From assembly GCA_964540135.1 (NCBI GenBank), contig CAZILK010000001.1:17843-81842 (forward strand): a stretch of DNA of 64,000 nt, given 5' to 3'. The stretch's first letter is position 1. Every line of letters starts with the position of its first letter. Source of the stretch: an uncultured Candidatus Saccharibacteria bacterium (GTDB lineage Bacteria > Patescibacteriota > WWE3 > UBA101185 > UBA10185). Position numbers and translations under genes: made by a program. Below, piece after piece: positions 27,755 to 46,849 of this stretch. The notes under the pieces are model-generated. The model was given only the letters and a program-made list of their open reading frames with translations, was not told the DNA's origin and ran no database searches.

Positions 27755-29726
27755 ATTATTGTTCTTTGGCTTTGTTCTTTTTAATACAGCGTACGCTGAA
27801 TCCAAATACGAGTACTATAAAGAGCATTTCGAAGCTATTAAAACTTCAGCAATGCGTGAATCAGCAATAAACACCAAGATTTTGGTTCGTGGTAAAGGCT
27901 TTTTTCGCGATGATTATGATATTCTTTTTACTTCTAAATTAACACCAAATCAAATGGAGAAGTTTAAAACAAATGCGATTCTCATTTGCGATAAGACCTA
28001 TCAAGTGACTAGTGATATTGCATGTGGGATTGATAGCGTGACAGGCAAGGGTTTACAAGTTACAGATTTTGAAAAGTTAAAAATATATTCTCTAACAAGC
28101 AGTACCGGAACTTTAATAATTATTCCTGAAAGTAATTTTGTATTACCAGCACATAAGAATACACTTAGAAAGTTTTTAACTAACCTATACAAATCACAGT
28201 TAAATCCATCTGCCTCGAATTTTGCTAAATATGAATATATCAATAATATCTATTCAAATAGTGTAACAAAGATTGTTCTCTTGGTTGCGCTCCTCCTTTC
28301 AGTCATAGGGTTAGCCCGATTTATTCATAATTTTAAACCTGCGGTTAAAAAGTCTATATTTACGATACTTCTGGCAGATTTCATTACACTGATCCCAGTC
28401 TCTCTATTTGTTTATACTCGTGAGTCAATACCCCTAGCTTTAGATAGCTATGCATCCTTCATTACACGGTTGTTAGATCCATTTATTTTCATACAGTCAC
28501 TAACAACATACTCATTTATGGAGATTGCCGTTGCCTCGATGTTATATGTTTTCATAATACTCAGTTTTGTACTGTTTGTTTTACCAACTGTACATGGATT
28601 TGTTGCAAATTCCTTCACAGACCTTAATGTTAAGAACAAGGACTACTCAAAATATGTCCTGCTGCTTACATGGGCTTTAACTGCTCTTGTTTTAATTACC
28701 CCCGCTGTTAAAAATCCGTATTTACTTTTCGTTCTTCTTATACTAGTTTTTATCTTAAACAACATACGAAGTGTTGATAAAAAAGAGAGCAAAGATAGCT
28801 ATAAAAAGATTGTTATAGTTACAACACTTGTGGCTCTAAATGTTTTCTTTTACCTATTTGTTAATGTATTAAACTTAATACCCGGTAAAACATTGAAATT
28901 ATTTGGTGGATCGTCTCTACTTCCCACTACATTTAACGAAGCAGCTGCAGTTGCTATAGAGCCGTTGTATCCAGCATCAAATTCTCTTGTGTTTGCAGAC
29001 AAGTACCTAATCTATCACCCAAGCATTAAGAATATTGTTAATGTTCCTATCTCGAAATTCACAAGCACCGCAAATCATATTATTGTCCTACCTGATATTG
29101 AGGACTCATTGTTTAAAATTATCCACGAAGATAATGAATTAAAATACAAACTAATGACAAACAATAAGACAAGTTATCTGACTTTTAATGCTGACAGTCA
29201 AAAACAGTATATGCTGAAATTAACATTTAAATGTTCAAAAGAATTAGCTAGCTTTGACGGTAATTTTAAGCCATTTTACTTTAATAGCAGGCTTGGGGAG
29301 TTTGTGACAGATGGTGCCAGACTGCCATTTATGACTTTCACAGGGTGTACCTATATAGAAGGTAATGAGGGTACATATAGCGTACCTCTAACTTTACCTG
29401 AAGACTTTATGACCGGTGAGATTATTATGAAGTTCAACTTTTCGGTCAGTGATTATGTTGATGATATGACTTTATTTGAGAATAATATAGAGAAAGACTT
29501 CGACTATATTAACTTGACGACAGTTGAAAATGTAGCCTATCAAATCTATACAGATTACACTCAACCGGTATACGTTTATAGTGATATTTCAGAGGAGGTT
29601 AAATTTAGTAGTAACTACCTAATCTCTCAAAATATTAACAGCTTATTGTCAAAAGGTTTAATAAACGGGCACTTTACACTGTGGTCAGATACATTTGGGG
29701 CTTCAATCAAAAACACTAACAAATGA
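27735..29726 (+). CDS. Secreted/membrane protein: signal peptide, N-terminal extracytoplasmic domain, ~6 TM core, C-terminal ~270-aa extracytoplasmic domain
   Basis: Probable GTG start giving VKAVFLKLLFFGFVLFNTAYA-ES (signal peptide with AYA cleavage site); the ORF-track Met at 27711 overlaps the previous gene; hydrophobic core at residues ~180-400. Confidence 0.5.
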   Translation: MKAVFLKLLFFGFVLFNTAYAESKYEYYKEHFEAIKTSAMRESAINTKILVRGKGFFRDDYDILFTSKLTPNQMEKFKTNAILICDKTYQVTSDIACGIDSVTGKGLQVTDFEKLKIYSLTSSTGTLIIIPESNFVLPAHKNTLRKFLTNLYKSQLNPSASNFAKYEYINNIYSNSVTKIVLLVALLLSVIGLARFIHNFKPAVKKSIFTILLADFITLIPVSLFVYTRESIPLALDSYASFITRLLDPFIFIQSLTTYSFMEIAVASMLYVFIILSFVLFVLPTVHGFVANSFTDLNVKNKDYSKYVLLLTWALTALVLITPAVKNPYLLFVLLILVFILNNIRSVDKKESKDSYKKIVIVTTLVALNVFFYLFVNVLNLIPGKTLKLFGGSSLLPTTFNEAAAVAIEPLYPASNSLVFADKYLIYHPSIKNIVNVPISKFTSTANHIIVLPDIEDSLFKIIHEDNELKYKLMTNNKTSYLTFNADSQKQYMLKLTFKCSKELASFDGNFKPFYFNSRLGEFVTDGARLPFMTFTGCTYIEGNEGTYSVPLTLPEDFMTGEIIMKFNFSVSDYVDDMTLFENNIEKDFDYINLTTVENVAYQIYTDYTQPVYVYSDISEEVKFSSNYLISQNINSLLSKGLINGHFTLWSDTFGASIKNTNK

Positions 29727-30667: not shown

Positions 30668-32140
30668 ATGAAAGTCACAATTATAAAGATTAGCTGTTTC
30701 GCATTTTTAATCTATTTTTTAGGTTTTCTCTTTTTAAATAAGAGTGGCATAAACACTCTTCCCATACAGTCAGAAGACACTGTTCCAGCAATGTTTTTAC
30801 CAGTGACTTTGATAAAAGAACGAACCATGTTTGCCGATACCTATGTGAAAATGATGAAAGAGCGTTACCCCCAGCCAGATGACAAGCTTGGTATTTTAGG
30901 TTACACGCCTTTTTATCTAAAAAAAGTAGTGAAACTAAGTGAGCCTTACAAAGATTGTCTAAAGCATCCTAAAGATGCCGTTTGTTCAGTTACTACAAAT
31001 AAGTATGAGACGCACTACATGACTGCTTTTACAGTAGTACCGGGTTTATTAATAACCCCTGTTTATCTTATTCCTCTTGCTTTTAACATGCCTGTTACCT
31101 GGGATAATCTTATACTTTTGTCTCACATCTCTTCAGCACTGATTGTTATGCTCTGTGGTGTTTTTATGTATATTCTGTTACGAAAATTCTTTCTAGCACG
31201 AAGTGGGGATGACTCAAAAGCAGTGCTTTTAACCTGTGTCTATCTTTTTGGTACAGTAAATTTTGCAATGGTTTCCCAGTCTTTGTGGCAACACGGGTTT
31301 GTACAATTATTTTTGATAATTGGTCTTATCTTTTTACAAACCGGACTCACAAAATATTCCAAGTCCTCGTTCATGTTGTCTGGTCTTTTTCTTGCTCTCG
31401 CTGTTTTATCAAGACCAACAGCTGCACTTTTTGCGGTACTACTGTACGTATTAATACCAATAACCTTTAGGAGAGATTTTCCAAAGCTAGTACGGGGAAC
31501 AGTTTACCAAGCTTTAGGAGTTCTTCCTGCCGCCTTTTTCTTTTTTTGGTATAACGCTAAATACTTTGGGAGTATTGCAAATCAAGGGTACGCAGGTCAG
31601 TTTTTTAATAGTTGGTTATCTCCTTTTCCTGAAGGGTTTTTAGGTATCTGGGTTTCACCAAGTAAAGGTATCCTAATTTACTCTCCAGTTCTCTTGTATA
31701 TTTTCTTTGGTATCTTAAGAGTTGTTAAAAACAAGAAGATTGAAAACAAAAGCATCTATATTATATCCGCTATAATTATCCTACTTCACACACTTCTCAT
31801 GGGTAAATGGAAGCATTGGTATGGAGGATTTTCTTTTGGTTATAGATTAGCTTCAGATGCTCTGCCGTTTTTTATTTTGCTCCTTGTTCCATATATTACT
31901 TCTAGTTTTCATGAGAAATACAAAAAAGTCTTCTATGCTCTTTTTGCTTTTTCAGTTTTCGTTCAAATTTCAGGCATGGTCTTTTTTGATGGTATTTGGC
32001 ATAACGCATACGATGATGGGTTTAGAGATACAAAATGGCTATGGTCTGTTAGAGACTCTGAAGCAGGTTTTAATGTGAGGAGGGTACTAGTGAAGTCAGG
32101 GTTTCTTGAGCGTGCCTGTCCGGAGTGTTTGAGTAACTAA
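30668..32140 (+). CDS. Polytopic membrane protein, putative GT-C-type (ArnT/PMT-like) glycosyltransferase
   Basis: 490 aa, about 11 TM helices; the segment SGLFLALAVLSRPTAALF resembles ArnT-family helices; glycan locus. Confidence 0.45.
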   Translation: MKVTIIKISCFAFLIYFLGFLFLNKSGINTLPIQSEDTVPAMFLPVTLIKERTMFADTYVKMMKERYPQPDDKLGILGYTPFYLKKVVKLSEPYKDCLKHPKDAVCSVTTNKYETHYMTAFTVVPGLLITPVYLIPLAFNMPVTWDNLILLSHISSALIVMLCGVFMYILLRKFFLARSGDDSKAVLLTCVYLFGTVNFAMVSQSLWQHGFVQLFLIIGLIFLQTGLTKYSKSSFMLSGLFLALAVLSRPTAALFAVLLYVLIPITFRRDFPKLVRGTVYQALGVLPAAFFFFWYNAKYFGSIANQGYAGQFFNSWLSPFPEGFLGIWVSPSKGILIYSPVLLYIFFGILRVVKNKKIENKSIYIISAIIILLHTLLMGKWKHWYGGFSFGYRLASDALPFFILLLVPYITSSFHEKYKKVFYALFAFSVFVQISGMVFFDGIWHNAYDDGFRDTKWLWSVRDSEAGFNVRRVLVKSGFLERACPECLSN

Positions 32141-32651
32141 AAGTATCGTACTTCTGTAATGCCTCATCTTCATCTATCATATCCTTAACTCTTTGAACTA
32201 CTTGCGCTACTTTTTGCTTAAGCTCTAGTCTAAAAGTCTCAGAACCCATACTACTTATAGCTTTCTGTGGTTGCTTTGCTACCTCGCTTAGTGCTTCTAC
32301 TAGATATCTTGTTTGATCAAAAGAACTATCAAACCGACTATCCAGTGTTGTAAGTATGTAAGGGTCGTTCGTATACACTATTAAAAATGCCCAGGCAACA
32401 TGATTGCTCTTGCACTCAAGTTTCATTTCATTGGCAGCGCGCCTTACACGGTACTCGGAACTTGCCGTGTCGATTACCATGTGGAGTGGTAATAACACCA
32501 TGCTTTCTAAGAAATCTTCATCAAGGTTATTTTGAGTAACAACGAAAGTTTCTACCCACGCTTGTGCTTCGCATATCATCAGTATGTTTATAGCATGCTC
32601 AAGTAGGTTGTTATACAGCTCCTCTGGTAAAGACGTAAGATCCTCATCCAC
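32070..32651 (-). CDS. Hypothetical soluble acidic protein (193 aa); possibly the C-terminal part of a frameshifted 337-aa protein
   Basis: Normal amino-acid composition; GTG start overlapping the stop of the upstream ORF; 3' end overlaps the convergent membrane-protein gene by 71 nt. Confidence 0.45.
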   Translation of the reverse strand: MDEDLTSLPEELYNNLLEHAINILMICEAQAWVETFVVTQNNLDEDFLESMVLLPLHMVIDTASSEYRVRRAANEMKLECKSNHVAWAFLIVYTNDPYILTTLDSRFDSSFDQTRYLVEALSEVAKQPQKAISSMGSETFRLELKQKVAQVVQRVKDMIDEDEALQKYDTFSYSNTPDRHAQETLTSLVPSSH

Positions 32652-33078
32652 ATATATTCCTTCTTATAGTGTTTAATCTTTGTATGAGCGACATTGCACC
32701 AGTTTCCGCCTCTTGATAGTGGTGCTGTATCTCGTGTTCTAGCATGAACTCTCTAAACACAGTGTTAAATTCTGTTTCCGGCATGCTTAAAATGTGTTTT
32801 TGTGCTCTTTCCGCAGCAGACAGTATTAATCGCTCATCTTCGTCTGTAAAGTAGCTTTGTTGTTGCCTTAAAAGATAGTGCTTTGCTAATACGTCACTTC
32901 TAAATGAGCGCGAGCTCTGTAAATTGATAGCTGCTCTAGCACCTGGCTCTTTCGGTGGTTTGTAAGAGCTTGTATCTTCTACTATGTTTATTTCTACGAA
33001 TTTAGGAGTATTAACCTCAGGCATATTGTAATTAGTATAGCGAATTATCTTCCACAAAAGTACATTTGGAACTATCAT
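32644..33078 (-). CDS. Hypothetical soluble protein (144 aa); possibly the N-terminal part of a frameshifted gene
   Basis: Opposite strand to the flanking glycan genes; no recognisable motif. Confidence 0.45.
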   Translation of the reverse strand: MIVPNVLLWKIIRYTNYNMPEVNTPKFVEINIVEDTSSYKPPKEPGARAAINLQSSRSFRSDVLAKHYLLRQQQSYFTDEDERLILSAAERAQKHILSMPETEFNTVFREFMLEHEIQHHYQEAETGAMSLIQRLNTIRRNICG

Positions 33079-33120: not shown

Positions 33121-34326
33121 ATGGATATACAAAGTAAGTACAACATAATTTGCCTTTCAAATCAGTTATGGGATTTTCCTAACTGGACTAATAAACGTCA
33201 TGTCATGGCACGGCTTGCGGGGAGTGGAAATAATGTACTTTTTGTAGATCCTCCGATTAATGCAGGAAGGGTTTTATTAAAACAGATACAGCGTAAGAAC
33301 TGGGACGTAAAAAGGCTAATGACCCAAGTTAAAATTGACGGCAGTGTTCACGTTTTTACTCCGGTAAACTTATTACCTGTTGCTGAAGTTACTTCAAAGA
33401 TTCATGTTGGGCGAATCAAGAGAATTGCAAAGAAAGTTTTTGACCCTAATCTTAAAACACTTCTTTGGGTATACCATGTTCAGATACCTGATCTAAAATA
33501 CTACATTACTGAGCTTAAGCACGATCTATTAATATATGACTGTGTAGATAATTATTCCGGTTTTCCAAAACAAACCTCTCTTATTCGAACTGTTAAATCC
33601 GATACATCTTTAATTGAGCAAGAAGAGTACTTAGCAACTACAGCAAACCTCATTTTTGCAACAGCGCCTGCTCTTGTTGAGAAAATGCAAAAGTTTAACT
33701 CAAACGTCCACTTTACGCCAAATGTAGGGGACTATGAGAAGTTTAAAAATATCAGGAGTTTTAAAGATCAGATACCTGCAGATCTTAAAGCTATCGGAAG
33801 ACCAAGAGTTGGTTTTACTGGGTCTCTTGATGATTACAAATTTGACTATGACCTTATGAAAAAGATTGCCTCAGATCATCCGACCATTAATTTTGTTTTA
33901 ATAGGGCCAATTGCCTTAAAGGATAGGGAAGCCGGTGATACAGTTGATACTTTTAAAGACTTCAAGAACATTCATTACCTTGGTTCTAGAGATTTTAAAA
34001 CAATCGAGTACTATTTTGCAGGGTTTGACGCTTATATGATTCCTTATGTGTTAAACGATTATACAGTTGGTGGTTGTTTCCCAATAAAGTTCCACGATTC
34101 TTTAGCCGCAGGCCTTCCAACGATAGTTACAAATATGCCAACATATCTTCCGTTTTCGGATGTTACATATATTTCTAAAACTTACGACGAATTCTCCAAA
34201 AACCTAAGACTCGCTCTTGATGAGGATACTCCTGAGCGAATAAAAGCTCGCCAAGCGGTTGCAAAAGACAATAGTTGGGAAGGTAAAGTTGCTAAACTTC
34301 TCTCACTCATAAACCAAAATATTTAG
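33121..34326 (+). CDS. Glycosyltransferase, GT-B fold (GT1/GT4-like C-terminal domain)
   Basis: C-terminal GFDAYMIPY...CFPIKFHDSLAAGLPTIVTN resembles the donor-binding domain of GT-B transferases. Confidence 0.6.
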   Translation: MDIQSKYNIICLSNQLWDFPNWTNKRHVMARLAGSGNNVLFVDPPINAGRVLLKQIQRKNWDVKRLMTQVKIDGSVHVFTPVNLLPVAEVTSKIHVGRIKRIAKKVFDPNLKTLLWVYHVQIPDLKYYITELKHDLLIYDCVDNYSGFPKQTSLIRTVKSDTSLIEQEEYLATTANLIFATAPALVEKMQKFNSNVHFTPNVGDYEKFKNIRSFKDQIPADLKAIGRPRVGFTGSLDDYKFDYDLMKKIASDHPTINFVLIGPIALKDREAGDTVDTFKDFKNIHYLGSRDFKTIEYYFAGFDAYMIPYVLNDYTVGGCFPIKFHDSLAAGLPTIVTNMPTYLPFSDVTYISKTYDEFSKNLRLALDEDTPERIKARQAVAKDNSWEGKVAKLLSLINQNI

Positions 34327-34339
34327 GTATAATTGCTGC

Positions 34340-35449
34340 ATGAAGATCCTGTACGCTATCAATTCAGCTGTGCTGGGGGGTGCTGAAAAGCATATTCTTG
34401 AGTTAGCTGGTGGCATGAGGGAACGGGGGCATGAAGTTCATATCTGGTGTCCCCAAGGACCGATGAATACCCAGTATAGGGACGCAGGAGCAACTGTTGT
34501 AACTACACAGGCGAAGTTTGATTTGGATCCCAAATACATCGCAGCTCTTTATAAGCATTTAAAAGCACATAACATAGATGTTATTCATACACATGATCTT
34601 AAGGTTGGCTGTAACGGTCAGTTAGCAGCAATTTTTGCTAAAACACCAGTAAGAATTGGGCATATTCATACCCCTATTTCTACATGGAAAATACCCGTGG
34701 TTAAAAAAATAATTGATCTTGTAGTCTATTTTTTTGTTGCCAACTTTCTAGTTAGTAAAGAGATTGCCATAACTGAGGTTGGAAAAACTACAAAACAAAA
34801 AGAGGGGATTTCTAAAAACAAATTAGTTGTTATCCCAAATGCGGTGGAACCTCCGCGCACAGTTAATGTCTTAAAAACAAAGGATTTTACACAGAAATGG
34901 GGCTTTGAAACTAACTTTATCATTGGATGTATAGGTAGACTAACACCTGAAAAAGATCCGTTTACACTTTTGAAAGCATTTAACAAGCTATCTCAAGAAG
35001 ACGAAAATGTTAGGCTTGCACTTATTGGAGGTGGAGAGCTTGAGCAGCCACTCAAAGATACAATAAGTGAGTTGAAACTAAATGATAAGGTTATTATAAC
35101 TGGAGTATTTGAAGATACCGATAAAGGTGAGCTCTATAAAGCATTATCACTTTTTGTTTTTCCTTCACAAGCTGAAGGTTTTGGCTATGTCCCGCTTGAA
35201 GCATTGTCTTATGATCTGCTGGTTATATCCTCAAACTTACCTGTTCTTAAAGAAGTTCTTGGAGACAGTGCGTTGTACTTTAACCTTGGCGACCCTGTTA
35301 GTTTATACGATGAGCTTAAACTTGCTATAAACAACTACTCTAATCTTCAATCTGAAACTGAAGCTCGAAAAAAAGTATTAAACGCTTTTACACATGAAAA
35401 GTTTATTAACGCACATGAAAAACTTTATAAGGAGCTATTAACGAGATGA
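34340..35449 (+). CDS. Glycosyltransferase family 4
   Basis: MKILYAINSAVLGGAEKHILELA N-terminus; EGFGYVPLEALSYDLLVISS E-x7-E motif. Confidence 0.85.
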   Translation: MKILYAINSAVLGGAEKHILELAGGMRERGHEVHIWCPQGPMNTQYRDAGATVVTTQAKFDLDPKYIAALYKHLKAHNIDVIHTHDLKVGCNGQLAAIFAKTPVRIGHIHTPISTWKIPVVKKIIDLVVYFFVANFLVSKEIAITEVGKTTKQKEGISKNKLVVIPNAVEPPRTVNVLKTKDFTQKWGFETNFIIGCIGRLTPEKDPFTLLKAFNKLSQEDENVRLALIGGGELEQPLKDTISELKLNDKVIITGVFEDTDKGELYKALSLFVFPSQAEGFGYVPLEALSYDLLVISSNLPVLKEVLGDSALYFNLGDPVSLYDELKLAINNYSNLQSETEARKKVLNAFTHEKFINAHEKLYKELLTR

Positions 35450-36588
35450 AAGTGTTAATGCTTGGGAGAACTGATATAAAAAGTAATCCTGGAGGCGATC
35501 TTATTCAGATTGAACAAACTGCACTCGAACTTCGAAAGCTTGGTGTTCAGGTTGATTTAAAAACCACTTGGCATGTTGATATGTCTAAATACGACCTTGT
35601 TCATATTTTTCAACTTGACTGGGTATCAGAGTGTTTTATCTACGCAAGAGAAGCAAAAAAAGCAGGTAAAAAGGTTGTTTTGTCCCCAATACATCACAGT
35701 ATTAAAGAAGTGGAGCTGTGGGAAAAACAGTTCGCGTTTGGTATGCGAAAACTAGCCAGTACCTTCCTGCCTACCCAATTTTTACGGGATACAGCAAAGA
35801 TAGTTTACAGAGCACTATTTTTTGATCACGCAAAGCTCCTTCCTGCTTTTTATGCAGGAATTTATGGACTTAAAAGTCTTCATCAAAAGACTCTTGAGTT
35901 ATCAGATCTTGTTCTTGTACAAACACAGGCTGAGGTAGTTGATCTGAAGTCTACCTACGGTGTTGATTTTAACTGGCATGTTGTACCAAACGGAGTAGGG
36001 TCAAACTATATAGAAACTGCCGGTCAATTAACTGAGAATACGGTCCCGCCTCTAGCTTTCACTGACTATATTCTGTGTGTAGGAAGAATTGAGGCGAGGA
36101 AGAATCAATTAAGTGTAATAAAAGCTGTTGAGAAATTGAGGAACGAAACAAATAAAGATCTAAAGCTTGTATTTGTTGGAAGACTTAGTAGAACACAGAA
36201 AAGTTATGTAAATCACTTTTTAACTGAGGTTAAGAGTTATGACTGGATAGCTCATCTTGAGTGGATTGACTACTCTAAAATGCCAAGTGTTTATAAGTTT
36301 GCAGCAGTTTCTGTATCTGCTAGTTGGTTTGAAACAACAGGCCTTACTAGCCTTGAGGCTTTGTACTGTGGTTGTAATGCTGTTGCAAGTGGAGCGAGGG
36401 CTTTTGAGGTGCTGGGTGATCTTGTTGAGTACTGTGATCCTTCAGATATTGATAGCATTAAGGACGCTATCAATAAACAATTAACTAAACCAAAACCTAT
36501 ACTCAGTAACGAGTTTAAACGCAAATACACTTGGCAAAAGAGTGCCGAAAAAACATTAAAATTATATAATGAGGTTCTTAATGACTAA
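35446..36588 (+). CDS. Glycosyltransferase family 4
   Basis: GT-B organisation; ETTGLTSLEALYCGCNAVAS motif; 4-nt overlap with the upstream GT4. Confidence 0.8.
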   Translation: MKVLMLGRTDIKSNPGGDLIQIEQTALELRKLGVQVDLKTTWHVDMSKYDLVHIFQLDWVSECFIYAREAKKAGKKVVLSPIHHSIKEVELWEKQFAFGMRKLASTFLPTQFLRDTAKIVYRALFFDHAKLLPAFYAGIYGLKSLHQKTLELSDLVLVQTQAEVVDLKSTYGVDFNWHVVPNGVGSNYIETAGQLTENTVPPLAFTDYILCVGRIEARKNQLSVIKAVEKLRNETNKDLKLVFVGRLSRTQKSYVNHFLTEVKSYDWIAHLEWIDYSKMPSVYKFAAVSVSASWFETTGLTSLEALYCGCNAVASGARAFEVLGDLVEYCDPSDIDSIKDAINKQLTKPKPILSNEFKRKYTWQKSAEKTLKLYNEVLND

Positions 36589-39496
36589 TTTTGAACCCAT
36601 TGTGGGGCTTGTAATATTTGTGGTTGGGTTGTACGCAGTTATTCGTGACTGGCGCTTCTTCATTTATATTCTGCTTTTTTTTAGTGTATTTCTGCATAAA
36701 GAATTGTTTAGTTTATACAAATGGGATTTGATGCCGATTAGATTTTTAATGGCAGCGGTATCGGTTTTTGTATCATTTACGGCTATTCGTAAACTTCTTT
36801 GGTTGTTTAAGAGAAGAAAGTTGTTGACTGGGGATGTACTTGCCCAGAAAGCGGCAGTCCTTGAGCTGCTTCACGACCCGTTTATAGTTTTCCTCTCACT
36901 TCTATGGCTAGTTAGGTTGATATCTCTTCTTTTCTCGGCAGATACTACTTCAAGCATCACGCTGTTTGCTTTCTTCACAACAATTTACTTTGGTGGTTTG
37001 TTCGTATACGTTAAGCTTAAAAAATCTACTACAGATAGCCTTAGGTTTATTAATTTCTATATTTTTATCGGGCTTTTGCTTTGTTTATTTGGCTTTGTTC
37101 AGTTGTTTGTCCATTATAGTTACGGACTAACAATTGGCTCTTTGTGGGCAATTCCAAAACACTTACCAAGAGTCGGGAGTATCTTTTGGGATGTGAATCA
37201 TTTTGGCGGATTTATAGCGTCTCTTTTACCACTATGTGCTGTTCAGGCTTTGACCTCTCACACTTTGAAAGCCAAAGCCTATAACTTGTTTTGCATCTTG
37301 TCGTTCACAGTAATTCTTTTCTTAACTAACTCAAGAACATCGTGGATGTTGATGGCTATCTCAGTTGTAGTTTTCTTGTTTTTACTTGTTTATAAAAAGT
37401 TAAAAGTCAAAGGTATTTTACTTGGGCTTGTTATAGCTCTTTTTGTAGCTGGTTTCTTTGTCTATTCCTACTCAATAAAAGATTCTGAATTTAGACTTGT
37501 AGTTAAGAATTATTTTCACTACAGGTTAGACTCATTTGATTCACATTTTCTACTTCTCAGGGGAGCCTCACAAGTTTTTGAAAAGCACCCTATTTTTGGA
37601 GGTGGTTATGGCAGTTTTTTTGAACAGTTCAAAAAAACTGAAGTTTCCTCCCTTTACTTAAGCCGGGATCCTGCAGGATTAATTACAAAAGTACCGGCTC
37701 ACACTATTTGGGGTGAGGTGGCTGCAGAAACTGGTATCCTAGGTCTTGGGGTTTTCATACTGCTATTTATCTTGTTGGTATCGGTTCCGCTCTATAACTT
37801 TTTAGTAAGCTCGTACCACAAAGATTATCTTATTCATGGTGCGATCGTTGCTTCAATTGTTGGTTGGTTCACAGCAGGTATTTTTTATTCTTATAACTCA
37901 GAATTCTTTTGGTTTGTGTTAATTTTATATCTTGCGTATTCAGCCAGTACTTACTTTAAGCTAGAAAATAAGCCGCTAGATTTACAAGCATTTAAACGGA
38001 TGATCAGTTATATTGAGCAGAAGTTTAATGCTGGGTTTATATTTCTGGCTCTCATTTCATTTACTTTGATTTTTATCAATCTTGGGAAACATACATTTAT
38101 AACTTGGGATGAAGCAATTTATGCAAAAATCGCAAAGAATATGGTTGAATCAGGGGATTATCTTAGGCTTAGATGGCTTATGGATAAAACTTGGTTTGAA
38201 AAGCCCCCTCTTTATTTTTGGACAACCGCATTGTTTATGAAAATCTTTGGCATAACTGAGCTTGCAGCAAGACTAACATCAGCTATTGCTGGATTTGGGA
38301 CTGTTCTTGTAACTACTTATTTTGCAAAAAGGGCATTTGGGAAAAGTGTCGCGTATCTTTCAGGTCTGATCTTACTAACAACTTTTCAATTTTTATATTA
38401 CTCCAGAGCAGCCATGCTTGATGTTACAGTTACATTTTTTATGGTCTGTGCATTAACTATTTATTTCCTGCGAGCAAGAAATACTACAACCTTGTTATTA
38501 TCAGGAGTTTTTGTTGGGTTGGCAGCTATGACCAAAGGTGTCGTTGGCTTTTTACCACTACTAATAATTTTTATGTTTGAAGTTTCACATGCTTACTTTG
38601 ACGAGATAGGTTTTAAAAAAGCTTTAAAAAACAGCGTAATTAACTCAAGTATTATCTTTCTCTTCTCACTGATCATCTTTCTCCCGTGGCACCTTTATAT
38701 GTTTTCTATATATGGACCAAGATTTATTGATAACTATTTTATTTACCATGTTCTTCAAAGAGCAACTGAATCAATTGAAGACAAAGGTAGGCCATTCTTT
38801 TGGTACTTAATCGTGTTAAAAGTTAGTATGCGGATTTGGTTTATACTCCTAATCCCAACATTTATATTTAGTTCACTTCTTGTGTGTGTAAGAAGGATTC
38901 CCGAAAGACTTGGGCTTTTTCTGTCAAAACAAGAAAAGCTTGGGATTGTCTATTTGTTGATTTGGGCTTCTGTAACATTCTTGTTTTTCTCATTACCTGT
39001 ATCAAAGCTAATTTGGTACATAATCCCGATTTATCCGGTTCTTGCAATCATTTGTGCGGTGGGCTTTATCTTCTCAGTTAAAAGTATATATAAAATACTG
39101 CCTGTAGGAGTGTTTAAAGATATTACATACATAAGTGCATTTGCACTTGTATTAATCGGTCTGACTTATTTTTATATCGAAAGAAAGAAAGTTTATACCG
39201 ATAATTTAACTTTCCCTCAAGTATCTGTTATTTTAAAGAGCAATGGGCGTTTTCCAAATGATACTGTGAGAATAGATAAAGTAGATTATCCTTTGATGTA
39301 TTATTATCGAAAAGGTCCGTACACACCTACCAGATTTAAGGAGATAAAAGCGCAAATGGCTCTTTTACCTCCTGGTTCAAGGCTAGTCTTCATAACAAGT
39401 GAAAGAAGGTATCAAGAGCTTTCAGCTCTTTACCCATTAATTGAGCTTTACTGGCGAGAAGATGATTTCGTTTTAGCTTCAATTACCAACCTATGA
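36569..39496 (+). CDS. Fusion protein: N-terminal O-antigen ligase/polymerase (Wzy_C) domain plus C-terminal ArnT/PMT_2-type GT-C glycosyltransferase domain
   Basis: Residues ~230-420 carry Wzy_C hallmarks (LTNSRTSWMLMA; R...PIFGGGYGSF; VPAHTIWGEVAAETGILGLGVFIL). Residues ~480-975 carry the ArnT/PMT_2 signature (TWDEAIYAKIAKNMVESGDYLRLRW...FEKPPLYFWTTALFMKIFG...RLTSAIAG). One uninterrupted 975-codon ORF. Confidence 0.8.
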   Translation: MRFLMTNFEPIVGLVIFVVGLYAVIRDWRFFIYILLFFSVFLHKELFSLYKWDLMPIRFLMAAVSVFVSFTAIRKLLWLFKRRKLLTGDVLAQKAAVLELLHDPFIVFLSLLWLVRLISLLFSADTTSSITLFAFFTTIYFGGLFVYVKLKKSTTDSLRFINFYIFIGLLLCLFGFVQLFVHYSYGLTIGSLWAIPKHLPRVGSIFWDVNHFGGFIASLLPLCAVQALTSHTLKAKAYNLFCILSFTVILFLTNSRTSWMLMAISVVVFLFLLVYKKLKVKGILLGLVIALFVAGFFVYSYSIKDSEFRLVVKNYFHYRLDSFDSHFLLLRGASQVFEKHPIFGGGYGSFFEQFKKTEVSSLYLSRDPAGLITKVPAHTIWGEVAAETGILGLGVFILLFILLVSVPLYNFLVSSYHKDYLIHGAIVASIVGWFTAGIFYSYNSEFFWFVLILYLAYSASTYFKLENKPLDLQAFKRMISYIEQKFNAGFIFLALISFTLIFINLGKHTFITWDEAIYAKIAKNMVESGDYLRLRWLMDKTWFEKPPLYFWTTALFMKIFGITELAARLTSAIAGFGTVLVTTYFAKRAFGKSVAYLSGLILLTTFQFLYYSRAAMLDVTVTFFMVCALTIYFLRARNTTTLLLSGVFVGLAAMTKGVVGFLPLLIIFMFEVSHAYFDEIGFKKALKNSVINSSIIFLFSLIIFLPWHLYMFSIYGPRFIDNYFIYHVLQRATESIEDKGRPFFWYLIVLKVSMRIWFILLIPTFIFSSLLVCVRRIPERLGLFLSKQEKLGIVYLLIWASVTFLFFSLPVSKLIWYIIPIYPVLAIICAVGFIFSVKSIYKILPVGVFKDITYISAFALVLIGLTYFYIERKKVYTDNLTFPQVSVILKSNGRFPNDTVRIDKVDYPLMYYYRKGPYTPTRFKEIKAQMALLPPGSRLVFITSERRYQELSALYPLIELYWREDDFVLASITNL

Positions 39497-40617
39497 AGCT
39501 TGCAATTGTTCATGATGATTTTATTCAACACGGTGGGGCTGAGAACTTAGTTTTAGCTTTATGTGAGATCTGGCCAGACGCTGTTTTATACTCAAGCTAC
39601 GCTACAAAAGAATGGGAGGCAGAATTAAAGCTTAGCAATATCAAGCTTGTTACCTCTTTCATGCAGCACCTGCCTTTTAAGAAAAAGCTCAATAAATTCT
39701 ATGCTGGGCTTTTTCTTTTCCCACTTGCCTTTGAGAGCTTTAAGTTTGATGAATTTGATGTTGTTTTAAGTGTTTCAGCTAGGTTTTCACACTGCATCGT
39801 AACAAAACCACAAACCAAACATATTGCTTATATCAACTCCCCAGGAAGAATGTTCTGGGAAGCTTTAGACTATTTTGAAGATACTAAATTTGCAAAATCT
39901 AGATTTCTTAATAAAGTTGCTAGTAGGTATTTGAAAACTATCTCAGCGTACTATAGAGTTTGGGATTTTACTGCCGCACAAAGGGTAGATGCAATTATTG
40001 CTAATTCAAAAACTCCAAAAGCTAGAATTTTAACTTACTATAAAAGAGAGTCTGAAATAATTTACCCTTTTGTTGATGTTACTTATTTTGAAAACACTAA
40101 AAAAACTAAAGGTAATTTTTATCTCGTAATTTCCAGACTCGCTTCATGGAAAAGAATTGATACAGCGGTCAGAGCTTGTATTAAAACAGGAGACAACTTA
40201 GTTGTTGTTGGGGATGGGGAGATGCTAGCCGAATTAAAGAGATTATCTGCTGGGCATAAGAACATTCAGATTTTGGGCAGAGTGCCTGAAAGCAGAAAAT
40301 TAGAACTACTGTGTTCATGTAAAGCACTAATCAACACACAGTATGAGGATTTTGGGATAGTTCCTCTTGAGGCAATGGCCTGCGGGAAACCTGTTCTTGC
40401 GTACGGCCGCGGCGGTGTACTTGAGACAGTTCTACCGGGAAAAACCGGAGACTTTTATTATGAACAAACACCAGAAGCTTTAATTTTAGCTTTAAGCTCG
40501 TTTCACCCAGAGAAGTATTTAATGACAGATTGTATCTTTCAAGCAAGAAGGTTCAGTAAAGAGCTTTTTAAAAATGCCATAGCTAATTTCGTAAATAGTG
40601 TATACTTAGGGAACTAG
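39493..40617 (+). CDS. Glycosyltransferase family 4
   Basis: MKLAIVHDDFIQHGGAENLVLAL N-terminus; FGIVPLEAMACGKPVLAYGRGG E-x7-E motif. Confidence 0.8.
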   Translation: MKLAIVHDDFIQHGGAENLVLALCEIWPDAVLYSSYATKEWEAELKLSNIKLVTSFMQHLPFKKKLNKFYAGLFLFPLAFESFKFDEFDVVLSVSARFSHCIVTKPQTKHIAYINSPGRMFWEALDYFEDTKFAKSRFLNKVASRYLKTISAYYRVWDFTAAQRVDAIIANSKTPKARILTYYKRESEIIYPFVDVTYFENTKKTKGNFYLVISRLASWKRIDTAVRACIKTGDNLVVVGDGEMLAELKRLSAGHKNIQILGRVPESRKLELLCSCKALINTQYEDFGIVPLEAMACGKPVLAYGRGGVLETVLPGKTGDFYYEQTPEALILALSSFHPEKYLMTDCIFQARRFSKELFKNAIANFVNSVYLGN

Positions 40618-40624
40618 CTATCTT

Positions 40625-41266
40625 ATGAATTCATACGACATTTTAAAAAGACTGCTTGATATCTTTGGCGCACTTGTTGGCATTATTTGTCTTTCCCCAA
40701 TTCTCCTTTTCATGTCTATATTCATAAAACTAACCTCACCAAATGGAGCTATCTTCGCAGACATCCCACTTAGAATATGTAAAGGTGGGCGAGAATTTAA
40801 GATGTATAAATTTAGGTCTATGATACCTAACGCTCATCAATGGCTTCTTGATCATCCGGATTGGCACGAGAAGTATAAGGCCAATAATTATAAGATTTCA
40901 CCTGAAGAAGATCCAAGATACATTGCTGGAGCTAAATTTATGCGCAAGTATAGTATTGATGAGTTGCCTCAATTTTTTAATGTGCTGATAGGAGATATGA
41001 GTTTAGTTGGGCCACGGGCCTACTATCCGTTTGAGCTAAAAGAGCAACGTGCTAAGTTTCCAGAAACTGGAGTTTATATTGACGAGGTTCTTAAGATAAA
41101 GCCTGGGATAACAGGTGTATGGCAAATAGGCGGTAGGTCAAAGATCGGTTTTGTTGAAAGAATTAAAATGGATGCAGAGTATGCAAAGAGGCGTTCAATA
41201 TTGTATGATTTACTGGTGTTAATTAAAACACCAGTTGCAGTTTTGGCTGCGAAAGGAGCAAGTTAA
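40625..41266 (+). CDS. Undecaprenyl-phosphate sugar phosphotransferase (small monotopic PglC/WbaP-C-type sugar transferase)
   Basis: KRLLDIFGALVGIICLSPILLFMSIFIKL re-entrant helix, YKFRSM, DELPQFFNVLIGDMSLVGPRA are the conserved bacterial sugar-transferase family motifs. Confidence 0.9.
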   Translation: MNSYDILKRLLDIFGALVGIICLSPILLFMSIFIKLTSPNGAIFADIPLRICKGGREFKMYKFRSMIPNAHQWLLDHPDWHEKYKANNYKISPEEDPRYIAGAKFMRKYSIDELPQFFNVLIGDMSLVGPRAYYPFELKEQRAKFPETGVYIDEVLKIKPGITGVWQIGGRSKIGFVERIKMDAEYAKRRSILYDLLVLIKTPVAVLAAKGAS

Positions 41267-41267
41267 A

Positions 41268-43220
41268 ATGGATCGACCTAATGTATGGAAACCCTCATCA
41301 GTAAAGGGTAATAGTAATGTAAAAAAATTTGGTAAGCGGCTTGGTATTGGGGGCGGAATTATTCTTGGAGTATTCGCGCTCTTGTTTCTGGTTGTGTACT
41401 TGGTTCTTTTGCGCCCTGTTCTTGCCCTAAAAGCAGATGCAGACAGGATACAGTCGCACGTTAAAGCAAGCCAAGAGGCTTTAGCTGCAAGGGATCTCGT
41501 TACTTTTGAGAAGAACTTGGATCTCTTGGAGTCTGACTTAACACAGCTTCGAGCAACAAGAGATGAGAAGCTAAAATGGACTGCAAATTTTCCAAAGCTC
41601 AAAACCTACTATACCGATTCTGAATATTTTATAGATGCAGGACTTCACGCCATTAAAGCTGGTAAAGAATTCACAATTGTTGTTGAGCCTTTTGCAGATG
41701 CTCTTGGGTTGAAGATTGCTAATAACAAACCTCTTGAAAGCTCTGAATCAAACCCAAATGCAGCAGCAGAAGAGCAAGGTCTTGCCGAAGCCTTTTCAGC
41801 ATGGGTAGGTGCTATGCCTCTTGTTGCTGAGAAGTCAGATCCGATATTAAATGAATTAAATATGATGGGGGAAGAACTATCCAAAGTTGATGCTAGTAAA
41901 TACCCAGAAGATTTCAGAGGCTTTCCGCTTAGAGAGACAATAATTGGAGCACAAAACACATTAACACAGGTAAACGATTACGCGCCTGACATTAAAAAAG
42001 CTTTAGTTGTAATCCCTGAACTACTTGGTGTTGGTGGAGTTGAGAAAAGATATATGATTATCATGCAAAATGATAAAGAAATGCGCGCAACGGGTGGTTT
42101 TTGGACCTATCTCGCTACTTTTAAAGTAAATAATGCGCTTCTTAACTCAGATTTTACCTCCTACAACTCATACTATGTTGATGATGTCTTAAACACAATT
42201 GATGCATATCACACATTTCCAAAAGTCCCGCCGACATATGAAACACATCTAAAGGTTGAGAGAATGTTTGCAAGAGATGCGAACGTTTCGCCTGACCTAC
42301 CAACTTCAATAGATCAATTTCTAGAATTCTGGAACTTAGCAAAACCACTAGCTCCAGGACAATTCAAAGATATTGACGGCTTTGTCGTTATCAACACTCG
42401 AGTTTTAGAAGAACTCCTTGAGATAACAGGTCCTGCCACAGTTAATGGGTTTACTTATACAAAAGACAATGTTGTTCTTGAACTTGAAAAGCTTGCAAGC
42501 CTTGCACTTGCCGAGCAGGTTAATAGAAAGAAAGTTCTTGGAGACCTGATGGAAAGAATGCTTGTTAATGTCTTTGAATCTGATAAGAACTTGTGGCCAA
42601 AACTTGTTGATAAAGGGTTTAATCTTATGGCCAGAAAGCATGTTGCTGCTTATGTTGTTGATCCAGAAGCACAGGCGCTTCTTGAAAAACATAATTTTGC
42701 AGGCAGAATTGTAGATCCGGTAGAAGGGGATTATGTTTTTGTAAATGACACAAACCTTGGTGGAGATAAAACTAACTGGTTTACGACAAAAGAAGTTAAC
42801 CACAAACTTGAGCAGGTTAACGGTAAGTGGAAAAGAACAGTTACTGTAAACTTTACCTATAAACAACCATCAGCAGAATTTGCACCATTTGTAAAAAGAT
42901 ATAGATCTTGGATAAGAATCTATACCCCACTTGGTTCTGAACTTATAAAAATGACAGGGTCTGATGATGCTGCAGGTACTGGAGAAGAGCGCAATAAAAC
43001 CTACTTCCATGGTTTTGTAACTCTTGGGCCAGATGAAACCAAAACACTTACACTTGAGTATTATGTTCCGGATAGCGTTGTTAAAGACGGTGTCTATAAG
43101 TTGTATATTCAAAAACAACTCTCAATTGATACTGAAAAACACAGTGTTACGGTTGATGGGGAAACCAAAGAGCTACTACTTGATAAACTTGACAAAAAGT
43201 ACTCAAAAAAGCTTAAGTAA
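41268..43220 (+). CDS. Membrane-anchored extracytoplasmic protein (~650 aa), possibly DUF4012-like
   Basis: Start taken at Met after the upstream stop; single N-terminal TM (IGGGIILGVFALLFLVVYLVLL) then a large hydrophilic domain; family assignment from memory of genomic context only. Confidence 0.5.
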   Translation: MDRPNVWKPSSVKGNSNVKKFGKRLGIGGGIILGVFALLFLVVYLVLLRPVLALKADADRIQSHVKASQEALAARDLVTFEKNLDLLESDLTQLRATRDEKLKWTANFPKLKTYYTDSEYFIDAGLHAIKAGKEFTIVVEPFADALGLKIANNKPLESSESNPNAAAEEQGLAEAFSAWVGAMPLVAEKSDPILNELNMMGEELSKVDASKYPEDFRGFPLRETIIGAQNTLTQVNDYAPDIKKALVVIPELLGVGGVEKRYMIIMQNDKEMRATGGFWTYLATFKVNNALLNSDFTSYNSYYVDDVLNTIDAYHTFPKVPPTYETHLKVERMFARDANVSPDLPTSIDQFLEFWNLAKPLAPGQFKDIDGFVVINTRVLEELLEITGPATVNGFTYTKDNVVLELEKLASLALAEQVNRKKVLGDLMERMLVNVFESDKNLWPKLVDKGFNLMARKHVAAYVVDPEAQALLEKHNFAGRIVDPVEGDYVFVNDTNLGGDKTNWFTTKEVNHKLEQVNGKWKRTVTVNFTYKQPSAEFAPFVKRYRSWIRIYTPLGSELIKMTGSDDAAGTGEERNKTYFHGFVTLGPDETKTLTLEYYVPDSVVKDGVYKLYIQKQLSIDTEKHSVTVDGETKELLLDKLDKKYSKKLK

Positions 43221-45482: not shown

Positions 45483-45755
45483 TTAATTGAGATTTGTGTC
45501 TTTGGTAAATCCTTCAAAGAATATTTCATGGAGTGTCCAGGTAAGTTCGTGTGTATTAAAGCTAATATTAAAGGCTTCTTTTTTGGTAGAAACTGAAAAA
45601 TGAATAATAGGGGATTTCCCTTCATGAGAAATGTGTGCGAAGTTAACAGTATCTATTTTAAATCTTTTCCCATTCCATATTAAAGCAAGAGGAATAGGCT
45701 TTTGAGTTGTAAAATGGACAAGTACTTCTACCTTTTCATCTAGCTTCTCATACAT
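45483..45755 (-). CDS. Small hypothetical protein (90 aa), first gene of the dinB operon
   Basis: Stops 2 nt before the dinB start; preceded by a consensus promoter with a candidate LexA-type repeat; no recognisable motif. Confidence 0.5.
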   Translation of the reverse strand: MYEKLDEKVEVLVHFTTQKPIPLALIWNGKRFKIDTVNFAHISHEGKSPIIHFSVSTKKEAFNISFNTHELTWTLHEIFFEGFTKDTNLN

Positions 45756-45762
45756 GTCTAAT

Positions 45763-45791
45763 ATATACCCGAATATAATACGAATATCAAG
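45763..45791 (-). promoter_or_regulatory. Promoter of the small-ORF/dinB operon with candidate SOS operator in the spacer
   Basis: Minus strand reads TTGATA-ttcgtattatattcggg-TATATA-ttagac-ATG; the spacer holds the direct repeat TTCG-N7-TTCGG, also present in the lexA promoter spacer. Confidence 0.4.
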
Positions 45792-45834
45792 AAGGATTTG
45801 ATTTTTAAATTGTTTATACTATGATGCACACATG

Positions 45835-46062
45835 GAATCTTTTGACGTAGTGCATGTAGAGCCTGGCGGACACAAAGAGACACATTTAAATGTAATAGCG
45901 CTTCGAGTTGGTACCCCTGACGATGGTCTTGCCGCAAGTTCTGTGGGCGGCTGATGGGTACAAGTGCAAATAACAGATGAATATGGAACAGAGCGGAGTG
46001 TCTTAGTTGAGCGTGGAGGAAGTATGGTAACAGGTTTGGCCAAAGGAGATACCATAGCTATA
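45835..46062. ncRNA. Candidate structured non-coding RNA (identity unknown) in a GC-rich divergent intergenic region
   Basis: About 230 nt at ~50% GC against a ~36% background; multiple stem-loops (TATGGTA-N20-TACCATA; GCCGC-N11-GCGGC; GGTACCC...GGGTAC); the only ORF across it (minus, 78 aa) is Pro/Ser/Thr/Cys-rich and looks non-coding. Confidence 0.25.
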
Positions 46063-46108
46063 TTAAATGGTTAATTTGGAGTTAAGCAAAGTTTAACGAT
46101 ATAAACTT

Positions 46109-46778: not shown

Positions 46779-46812
46779 CAAGATGCCTTTCTCTTTGTTT
46801 TTACCCAATGTG

Positions 46813-46840: not shown

Positions 46841-46849
46841 GAAAAAGCT

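Follow-up and report, generated by a model that had tools for sequence, protein, structure and literature searches.

The fusion gene and its locus

The window, i.e., the whole stretch of 64,000 nucleotides analysed here, comes from an uncultivated bacterium of the WWE3 lineage and carries a gene in which a Wzy_C module is covalently joined to an ArnT/PMT-type GT-C module, surrounded by other glycosyltransferase genes. The features considered below are as follows.

1878–3179: weak Wzx-like ORF, 433 aa
10888–11844, minus strand: GtrB/ArnC/PgfS-like GT2, 318 aa (NCBIfam PgfS, E 3e-80; ArnC, E 1.7e-52)
30668–32140, plus strand: second, stand-alone GT-C, 490 aa (weak PMT_2 match; LA_3751/LA_3752 family match)
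33121–34326, 34340–35449 and 35446–36588, plus strand: three consecutive cytoplasmic GT4 enzymes (Glycos_transf_1)
36569–39496, plus strand: fusion gene, 975 aa
36569–37966, plus strand: N-terminal module, aa 1–466, WaaL/Wzy/PglL-type polytopic (Wzy_C, GT-C_B)
37967–38029, plus strand: linker, aa 467–487, lysine/arginine-rich, of variable length
38030–39178, plus strand: C-terminal membrane module, aa 488–870, ArnT/PMT-type GT-C_A
39179–39493, plus strand: C-terminal soluble alpha/beta domain, aa 871–975 (from AF2 secondary structure)
39493–40617, plus strand: fourth GT4 glycosyltransferase
40625–41266, plus strand: small Bac_transf polyprenyl-phosphate hexose-1-phosphate transferase (phosphoglycosyl transferase, PGT), 213 aa (Pfam E 2.6e-52; NCBIfam EPS_sugtrans/WbaP)
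41235–43220, plus strand: DUF4012 membrane-anchored protein
53173–54201, minus strand: LytR-CpsA-Psr (LCP) protein (Pfam E 1.7e-30)

The initial annotation had read the fusion as one 975-aa ORF, and this holds: the frame opens with ATG, contains no internal stop, and shares 20 nt with the preceding GT4 gene and 4 nt with the following one. The start codon is uncertain by four codons; the second in-frame Met, at 36581, would give 971 aa, and a database copy (P0001) of 971 aa, 100% identical to the fusion, begins at that position. An artefact, i.e., two genes joined by a missed stop or frameshift around 37950–38050, has in its favour the prior consideration that MAG assemblies contain errors, and one related locus (L070) has a genuine in-frame stop. 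However, 81 of the 84 independent related loci, taken from different studies and including a closed genome, keep one open frame from the N-half match through to where the C-half match ends (the two exceptions besides L070 are alignment-start artefacts), and at least 295 protein clusters (916–1056 aa) hold the same fused frame. We therefore reject a false read-through, the chance of which is practically nil, and the fusion is a genuine single gene.

When the same fusion was sought in related genomes, as had been proposed, it was found across uncultivated WWE3, in 96 species-level genomes (the closed genome CP006914 among them) and in the above protein clusters at ~25–52% identity, and 40 more 50%-identity representatives hold both halves, down to ~25–30% identity. 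The two enzyme classes do occur as separate proteins, as the initial annotation had it, and this very pair is split in L085/L086: there, a Wzy_C gene (460 aa) follows a GT4 gene and is separated by 56 bp from a PMT_2 gene (497 aa), behind which lies another GT4. The PMT_2 protein is 38% identical to the fusion C half; the halves are split in L087 too, and in a rough tree the split forms fall within the fused ones. The presence of the halves as adjacent separate genes in a related lineage supports a functional partnership. As to novelty, no paper describing a Wzy_C–ArnT fusion was found in the literature searched, in line with the earlier remark that the architecture is undescribed, but it is the usual arrangement throughout a candidate class and has stood in public records for years: databases label the homologues “glycosyltransferase family 39,” and JGI names one of them “ArnT-like glycosyltransferase/O-antigen ligase.”

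The conserved cluster order is GT-C, three GT4, fusion, Wzx, GT4, small PGT, and DUF4012. The stand-alone GT-C is kept at the upstream end in 61 of the 84 loci, the three-GT4 run (33121–36588) is syntenic in 68–76, and Wzx is present in 61. In the window, Wzx is absent from its usual site and tblastn with Wzx gave no match anywhere. In 78 of the 84 loci, no Wzy_C other than the fusion lies within ±8 kb; in some lineages, a second Wzy_C gene adjoins the fusion or the split pair. No chain-length regulator (Wzz/PCP) was recognised in the locus; DUF4012, always found beside the PGT, weakly resembles the LCP fold and shows no resemblance to Wzz by Foldseek. Further stand-alone PMT_2-like GT-Cs occur in the island.

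By family membership, the Bac_transf PGT would be the initiating enzyme that produces the Und-PP-sugar, and the LCP protein is a candidate ligase joining Und-PP-linked polymers to peptidoglycan. The GT2 at 10888–11844, located 25 kb from the fusion and outside the conserved core locus, matches PgfS and ArnC over its full length, yet under their equivalog cut-offs; it could be a polyprenyl-phosphate-sugar synthase supplying the donor for the ArnT-type domains. No GtrA-type small flippase was matched by family among the ORFs scanned in the window, and a hydrophobic 136-aa ORF at 27344–27754 has no family match. Synteny of the locus extends over WWE3 genomes of less than 1 Mb, and its neighbours are core genes (recO, glyS, and the mraZ–PBP cluster); thus, it probably makes a core surface polymer.

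Domains, conserved residues, and topology

According to the Pfam scan, three domains exceed their curated cut-offs: Wzy_C (PF04932; aa 243–397, E 2.2e-16, 60.5 bits against 31.7), PMT_2 (PF13231; aa 545–674, E 1.7e-17, 64.6 bits against 26.1), and PMT (PF02366; aa 492–712, E 5.5e-17, 62.6 bits against 22.7). Together with the motifs LTNSRTSWMLMA (aa 251–262), PIFGGGYGSF (aa 341–350), and AHTIWGEVAAETGILGLG (aa 377–394) in the N-terminal half, and DEAIYAKIAKNM (aa 514–525) and FEKPPLYFW (aa 543–551) in the C-terminal half, they agree with the initial assignment of the halves to Wzy_C and to ArnT/PMT_2, respectively.

The N module folds like WaaL, as a polytopic bundle in which the large extracytoplasmic loop (aa 303–379) comes late, and its residues R256, R319, H326, H378, and E445 are invariant. 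The sole solved structure it matches is the ligase WaaL from Cupriavidus metallidurans (PDB 7TPG/7TPJ), with 17–18% identity over structural alignments. WaaL residues R191 and H313 (numbering taken from the chain alignment) correspond to R256 and H378 of the fusion, both invariant in 43 homologues with 39–53% identity. In WaaL, R191 is the conserved Arg of the short outer turn, and H313, the catalytic His of the large loop. The second conserved Arg of WaaL, R265, differs in that it corresponds to the invariant H326; the invariant R319, seven residues upstream, might substitute for it. Wzy polymerases and WaaL/PglL ligases cannot be separated by sequence, and the N half may be a polymerase, a lipid ligase, or a protein O-oligosaccharyltransferase; judging by the PGT, GT4, and Wzx genes of the locus, its donor would be an Und-PP-linked glycan. 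Unlike the fusion, no characterised member of the Wzy_C superfamily (GT-C_B), which comprises WaaL, the Wzy polymerases, and the O-oligosaccharyltransferases PglL, PglS, and TfpO, was found described with a second glycosyltransferase attached.

The C half has the GT-C_A fold. Its residues D514/E515, Y518, E544/K545, D618, R731, and K813/Y817, corresponding to D55/E56, Y59, E84/K85, D158, R270, and K341/Y345 of ArnT, are invariant. The acidic D514/E515 motif of the first outer loop, Y518, and all ArnT residues for catalysis and lipid-phosphate binding (D55, E84, K85, D158, R270, and Y345) are kept in the same 43 homologues. It differs from ArnT (lipid A L-Ara4N transferase; PDB 5EZM/5F15; GT83) in having Y726/V728 at the zinc-site positions H265/H267 and in sitting behind a Wzy_C module. 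Orthology with ArnT is rejected, as the C half scores 105.7 bits with the NCBIfam equivalog NF009784 against a cut-off of 567, and it is a family relative. Eukaryotic PMTs (GT39 protein O-mannosyltransferases) carry a luminal MIR domain between transmembrane segments; in contrast, the Pfam scan of the fusion gave no MIR match at E≤1. The soluble domain (aa 871–975) is predicted to be extracytoplasmic and placed like the ArnT periplasmic domain. No lipid A or LPS genes were seen in the window, and lipid A is an unlikely acceptor.

Non-catalytic subunits with a GT-C fold can arise by recruitment, and one half might be a catalytically dead scaffold or regulator, e.g., the ArnT-like bundle might serve the Wzy-like half as a co-polymerase or docking site, which would suit a locus with no recognisable chain-length regulator. 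However, the outer loops of both halves are the most conserved segments, and the ArnT catalytic and lipid-phosphate residues, as well as the WaaL Arg and His, do not vary among diverse homologues, making a dead half highly improbable.

The linker contains four K/R residues, is likely cytoplasmic, and is the least conserved segment, with the mean column conservation of 0.24, compared with the highest values, 0.69–0.78, in the catalytic loops. Four helices lie between the Wzy_C loop (aa 303–379) and ArnT loop 1 (aa 507–547), and thus both active loops share one side, which by this helix count is the outer one of the cytoplasmic membrane. The “outer membrane face” of the initial annotation is to be corrected accordingly: the organism belongs to the Patescibacteria, and the window contains the putative LCP cell-wall ligase and PBP genes. 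The AF2 model of the whole 975-aa chain has pLDDT 88 and pTM 0.87, the latter being the only measure by which domain packing was judged.

The short, variable, unconserved linker, the occurrence of the pair as separate proteins in some lineages, and the other stand-alone PMT_2-like GT-Cs, which make such enzymes generic in the island, would be expected if two independent enzymes with different substrates were joined for co-expression only, without mechanistic coupling, e.g., one polymerising a glycan and the other modifying an unrelated lipid or protein in the ArnT manner. We consider this unlikely: fusion or adjacency is kept from ~25% to 52% identity in many lineages, always in the same glycan locus, and a pTM of 0.87 over 975 aa would hardly be expected unless the domains had a defined arrangement relative to each other. 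The coupling suggested initially gains only indirect support, from conserved synteny, alternation of split and fused forms, and same-side topology.

Comparison with known glycosylation pathways

Like the classical Wzx/Wzy loci for O-antigen or capsule, the WWE3 locus combines an initiating PGT, several cytoplasmic glycosyltransferases, Wzx (in the 61 related loci), and a single Wzy_C enzyme. Unlike them, it has no recognisable Wzz/PCP, DUF4012 holding a conserved spot beside the PGT; Wzx is missing from the usual site in the window; and the Wzy_C enzyme bears an extra GT-C domain.

The logic proposed for the WWE3 enzymes, among them the PgfS/ArnC-like GT2 of the window, is that of the multi-component extracytoplasmic systems GtrA/B/C, CsbB/GtcA/YfhO, GacI-L, PgfS/M1/M2, and lactococcal PSP, in which a GT2 makes a polyprenyl-P-sugar, which is flipped and then transferred outside by a GT-C onto a wall glycan. 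These systems consist of separate proteins throughout, whereas the WWE3 GT-C is covalently joined to a Wzy_C enzyme; besides, the WWE3 locus begins with a PGT (Und-PP chemistry), unlike GacI/WpsA-type Und-P initiation. In the lactococcal PSP model, the polymerase WpsH/I and then the GT-C WpsJ act on one lipid-linked glycan (PMC10821137), which sets a precedent for this order of steps.

Proposed function of the fusion

Our main reading, to which we assign a probability of roughly 55%, is that the fusion is a bifunctional membrane glycosyltransferase and the central extracytoplasmic enzyme of a WWE3 Wzx/Wzy-type surface-glycan locus, polymerising a glycan and then decorating it. The continuous ORF, the identity of both domains, the conserved residues, the synteny, and the split form are observed; we infer the substrates, the order of steps, the acceptor, and the polymerase rather than ligase role. 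Judging by the families, the small Bac_transf enzyme would transfer a sugar-1-phosphate onto undecaprenyl phosphate, the four GT4 enzymes would assemble the Und-PP-oligosaccharide in the cytoplasm, and a Wzx flippase would carry it across the cytoplasmic membrane to the outer face. There, the N module (aa 1–466; outer-loop R256, R319/H326, H378, and E445) would transfer the Und-PP-glycan donor, with repeat-unit polymerisation narrowly preferred over en bloc ligation, since the fusion is the sole Wzy_C protein in the locus and the LCP and DUF4012 proteins are candidates for final anchoring. At the same face, the C module (aa 488–975) would add a single sugar from a polyprenyl-monophosphate donor, possibly made by the GtrB/ArnC/PgfS-like synthase of the same island, to the same glycan, in which this sugar would form a side-branch, a cap, or a primer; covalent joining would hold the two steps next to each other and in stoichiometric proportion. 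Counted against this reading are the ligase WaaL as the only solved relative found, the replacement of R265 by H326, the lack of a Wzz-like regulator, and the missing Wzx at the usual site in the window. Where a second Wzy_C gene adjoins the fusion, either copy may polymerise. Since lipids or proteins can also serve ArnT-like GT-Cs as acceptors, that of the ArnT-type half need not be the locus glycan.

Several of these observations fit the reverse order, in which the ArnT/PMT half first primes its acceptor, which may be a protein (at Ser/Thr), a lipid, or a wall polymer, with a single sugar from a polyprenyl-P-sugar, and the N half, as a WaaL/PglL-type ligase or O-oligosaccharyltransferase, then transfers the Und-PP glycan en bloc to this sugar or to the acceptor. 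A sugar is the acceptor for WaaL-type enzymes, PMT_2 includes protein O-glycosyltransferases, and the island GT2 matches best PgfS, which belongs to a protein-glycosylation system; the only solved structure with which the N half aligns is that of a ligase, no Wzz-like regulator was found in the locus, and the second Wzy_C beside the fusion or pair in some lineages suits one polymerase and one ligase. On the other hand, with the fusion as the sole Wzy_C near the Wzx/PGT/GT4 set in 78 of 84 loci, the glycan would be a single unpolymerised unit; the LCP ligase in the window or the weakly LCP-like DUF4012 could do the anchoring instead; and the locus shows no obvious acceptor protein. Priming followed by ligation is thus a real, if lesser, possibility.

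A stronger version, in which the fusion is an obligate machine with two active sites, whose packed bundles hand the growing or finished glycan directly from site to site (polymerise-and-decorate or prime-and-ligate), is speculative and rather doubtful. If true, the fusion would be, as far as found, the first case in nature of a GT-C_B enzyme (Und-PP-glycan polymerase/ligase) covalently coupled to a GT-C_A enzyme (polyprenyl-P-sugar transferase), a structural model of how Wzy/WaaL-type enzymes engage partner enzymes, and the core of the main surface glycan assembly for an entire ultra-small episymbiotic class.

The fusion involves no new kind of chemistry, as each half belongs to a known superfamily. 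A natural combination of Wzy/WaaL-type and ArnT-type enzymes indicates which of them cooperate, offers one polypeptide for structural work on two membrane enzyme classes that are hard to study, and could find application in glycoengineering. Patescibacteria (CPR), whose surface mediates attachment to hosts, have cell envelopes that are almost uncharacterised, and the most probable role of the fusion is to assemble the main cell-surface sugar polymer and to modify it afterwards.

The fusion protein and its distribution

The ORF at 36569..39496 (+) begins with ATG, reads uninterrupted through 975 aa and contains all the motifs quoted in the initial annotation, which had described a single chain joining a Wzy_C domain to an ArnT/PMT-type GT-C glycosyltransferase. 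This architecture is borne out by the reading frame, by conserved residues of both halves and by Pfam, which places Wzy_C on aa 243–397 (E 2.2e-16), PMT on aa 492–712 (E 5.5e-17), and PMT_2 on aa 545–674 (E 1.7e-17), all well over the curated cut-offs. In NCBIfam, aa 492–882 resemble the ArnT family (E 2e-30), and since the score, 105.7 bits, is far under the equivalog cut-off of 567, the protein is a relative of ArnT rather than its orthologue. No Wzy- or WaaL-specific model of Pfam or NCBIfam matched, just Wzy_C (Pfam) and, weakly, IctB (NCBIfam), and hence profiles do not help to separate a polymerase from a ligase. Both halves have the defining features of their own superfamilies, apart from one WaaL arginine, an ArnT score at equivalog level, and a MIR domain as in eukaryotic PMTs. 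The database copy (P0001) begins four codons downstream, at 36581. Overlaps of 20 nt with the GT4 gene upstream and of 4 nt with the one downstream are as expected in an operon.

Among 5.8 billion proteins searched, 295 matched at E<=1e-5. The best 120 of these are 916–1056 aa long, 39–52% identical to the fusion (plus one identical copy), and originate from assemblies in NCBI, JGI, ENA, and Logan that carry the label candidate division WWE3 or Patescibacteria; all 120 carry Wzy_C with PMT_2, and 119 carry PMT too. In GTDB, with one genome per species, 96 genomes have a relative, among them the closed chromosome CP006914 (“Candidate division WWE3 bacterium RAAC2_WWE3_1”). The family of the N half (aa 1–466), searched alone against an exhaustive set of 1.84 billion representatives at 50% identity, is small (642 matches at E<=1e-3, 51 at E<=1e-30), and 40 of the 146 newly returned representatives combine both halves in a single chain, the lowest N-half identities being about 25–30%.

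One continuous frame runs from the N-half match through the end of the C-half (aa 488–975) match in 81 out of 84 related loci. Two of the three exceptions are alignments starting upstream of the true start; the third, L070 (8606–10501), has a real in-frame stop between the halves and an N-half match from residue 229 only, and is possibly a pseudogene or an assembly error. The false join of two genes by a frameshift or missed stop, named in the initial annotation as what would refute the fusion, is ruled out by the single-frame loci, the closed genome, and the database proteins of the same architecture. Taken together, the wide spread, the single frame, and the low N-half identities show the fusion to be old and stable.

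Folds, active-site residues, and topology

The AlphaFold2 model of the fusion, run on a 43-sequence alignment, has a mean pLDDT of 88 and a pTM of 0.87; so high a pTM for a two-bundle chain of 975 aa suggests that the bundles, whose packing the initial annotation had proposed to model, are arranged in a defined way. Foldseek concurs with the fold matches of both halves obtained by structure comparison.

Structure comparison of the two halves (score in brackets)
C half, ArnT 5F15 (34.4; 410 residues, 3.1 A)
C half, Pmt4 (25.9)
C half, AglB (25.5)
N half, WaaL 7TPJ (22.0; 364/403 residues)
N half, RodA/FtsW (about 13)

According to the phmmer alignment with ArnT (chain index = native numbering + 3), residues of the C half pair with the ArnT residues responsible for binding the undecaprenyl-phosphate head group and for catalysis, and all of them are invariant in the 43-sequence alignment.

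Residues of the fusion and their ArnT counterparts
D514/E515, ArnT D55/E56
Y518, ArnT Y59
E544/K545, ArnT E84/K85
D618, ArnT D158
R731, ArnT R270
K813/Y817, ArnT K341/Y345

The N-half profile matches WaaL 7TPG (E 1.4e-5), with R256 paired with WaaL R191 and H378 with WaaL H313; opposite WaaL R265 stands an invariant histidine, H326, and an invariant arginine, R319, lies seven residues upstream of it. In WaaL, R191 and R265 are conserved arginines and H313 is the catalytic histidine, the numbering being taken from the chain alignment. The invariant Glu445, in the outer loop after the large Wzy_C loop, resembles in its position Glu404 of PglL and Glu379 of PglS (PMC12800693). With catalytic residues invariant in both, neither half appears to be degenerate. 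The outer loops are the most conserved parts of the fusion (0.78 in aa 186–212, an outer loop of the N half; 0.77 in aa 303–379, the large Wzy_C loop; 0.69 in ArnT loop 1), and the linker, aa 467–487, is the conservation minimum (0.24) and varies in length.

Four helices (aa 380–413, 417–436, 445–466, and 488–506) separate the large Wzy_C loop (303–379) from ArnT loop 1 (507–547), and thus both catalytic loops are predicted to lie on one side of the membrane. The linker, with four Lys/Arg in 21 aa, would then be on the opposite, cytoplasmic side, which is as expected for a WaaL-type bundle ending, and an ArnT-type bundle starting, in the cytoplasm.

The conserved locus and the glycan island

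The first 43 kb of the window form a glycan-biosynthesis island. The gene order around the fusion is kept across the 84 related loci, many of which are cut by contig ends, and the counts below are to be read with these truncations.

Genes around the fusion and their occurrence among 84 loci
30668–32140, GT-C of the LA_3751/LA_3752 family, upstream end of the order (61/84)
starts 33121, 34340, and 35446, three GT4 genes directly upstream of the fusion (GT4a, 68/84; GT4b, 75/84; GT4c, 76/84)
start 39493, GT4 (GT4d) directly downstream of the fusion (53/84)
start 40625, small Bac_transf phosphoglycosyl transferase, PGT, after GT4d (51/84)
41235–43220 (+), DUF4012 protein, right after PGT (46/84)
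after the DUF4012 gene, recO
related loci, Wzx flippase (61/84)

Usually the fusion is immediately followed by Wzx (Polysacc_synt) on the opposite strand and then by a variable insert. In the window and its closest relatives, L003 and L005, Wzx is absent just downstream of the fusion (39496–39493 junction), and tblastn over all 64 kb of the window detected none; a 433-aa ORF at 1878–3179 (+) with a weak Wzx-like NCBIfam match (E 4e-4) is the sole candidate there. Between the conserved GT-C and the first GT4, adjacent in most related loci, the window has two ORFs of 193 and 144 aa without family matches (32070–33078, -).

The remaining genes suggest a fucosylated, methylated glycan (3176–8428) and hint at heavily modified sugars (14154–20365).

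Other genes of the window
3176–8428, GDP-mannose 4,6-dehydratase, NAD-dependent epimerase/reductase, two GT2s, methyltransferase, and GT11-type fucosyltransferase
10888–11844 (-), full-length PgfS/ArnC/GtrB-like GT2, likely a polyprenyl-P-sugar synthase
14154–20365, run of five SAM-methyltransferase-like genes and an asparagine-synthase-like amidotransferase, in the island
17022–18890 (-), this glutamine-dependent amidotransferase
11936–14152 (-), 21405–25698 (+), 25691–27322 (+), and 27711–29726 (+), large island ORFs (543–739 aa) without a Pfam family
53173–54201 (-), LCP protein beside the mraZ-PBP cluster

Among the large ORFs are two tandem paralogues (739 and 694 aa, 31% identical) and a 738-aa ORF adjoining the GtrB/PgfS-like GT2, whose GT-C partner it could be; hydrophobic stretches abound in the three island ORFs with translations read (543, 136, and 671 aa). 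The region of about 1.1 kb between the umuC/dinB-like gene region and glyS (45755–46850) has short ORFs only (<=102 aa), and scans for tRNA and Rfam families gave none in the whole window, this region included.

The DUF4012 protein always adjoins PGT. Its AF2 model (pLDDT 82.8) combines a membrane anchor and a helical hairpin roughly 120 aa long with an alpha/beta core and a beta-sandwich. A PDB sequence search gave no match, and the best Foldseek matches are weak (3PE5, E 1.4e-3; 3NXH, YvhJ, E 1.1e-2; TM about 0.4), both being structures of the LytR-CpsA-Psr (LCP) family; these results lend no support to a Wzz-like chain-length regulator. With the LCP protein of the window, hhalign detected no profile similarity. 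DUF4012 may be a distant LCP-like ligase of glycopolymers or an auxiliary protein, which we consider a lead, not a finding.

Split forms and the proposed order of action

In two loci, L085 and L086 (285-kb JGI contig; L085 6001–11507), the order is GT4, Wzy_C, PMT_2, GT4, second Wzy_C, and Wzx. The first Wzy_C protein (460 aa, 33% identity to the N half) and the PMT_2 protein (497 aa, 38% identity to aa 491–868) are separated by a 56-bp gap with a stop, and the second Wzy_C (428 aa, 37% identity to the N half) adjoins Wzx. The halves are likewise split in L087, and in L089 a stand-alone PMT_2 gene is followed by a GT4 and then by an 849-aa Wzy_C relative. On a rough neighbour-joining tree, split forms nest among the fused ones. 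Hence, this Wzy_C lineage is persistently paired with a PMT_2 GT-C, fused or adjacent, the classical signature of functional partners, and the coupling of the two halves suggested initially is likely.

Six loci of a divergent clade encode, after the fusion, a second Wzy_C protein, 700–750 aa long (L079 11020–13245; L082 11041–13152; L088 8001–10256; and three further loci), with a C-terminal extension of 250–300 aa that matches no Pfam family. Related proteins of about 850 aa (P0158, P0168, P0173) show weak (25%) likeness to the ArnT-like half. The lineages carrying two Wzy_C genes, as well as the structural match of the N half to WaaL, fit the main rival scheme, “prime-and-ligate,” in which the GT-C half would add an acceptor sugar, to which the WaaL-like half would ligate the glycan. 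Still, the N half as a polymerase is narrowly favoured over a ligase, because the fusion is the sole Wzy_C gene in most loci (within about 8 kb in 78 out of 84) and other anchoring candidates exist, namely, LCP and possibly DUF4012.

Judging by the enzyme families, PGT would make an Und-PP-sugar, the GT4s would lengthen it, and Wzx would flip the glycan; at the outer face, the Wzy_C enzyme would use Und-PP-glycans as donors and the GT-C, on the same face, a polyprenyl-monophosphate sugar. The two modules probably work one after the other on the locus glycan and, with the N half polymerising, the C half would contribute a branch, cap, or primer sugar. The “outer membrane” face of the initial annotation should read the outer face of the cytoplasmic membrane. 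A precedent for the order polymerase, then GT-C is the model of lactococcal PSP, where polymerisation by WpsH/I is followed by the GT-C WpsJ on the same lipid-linked glycan (PMC10821137), but with separate proteins.

A full-text literature search found no paper on a Wzy_C–PMT_2 fusion or on WWE3 envelope glycans. In public records the fusion is entered as “glycosyltransferase family 39 protein” or “hypothetical,” and JGI calls one homologue “ArnT-like glycosyltransferase/O-antigen ligase.” The statement that the architecture had not been described therefore stands for the literature searched, but the databases already hold it, unremarked, with one name covering both activities. The fusion is an uncharacterised, lineage-wide joining of two known enzyme classes, not new chemistry: clean, testable, and phylum-wide, it is built from familiar parts, in a group about which little is known.
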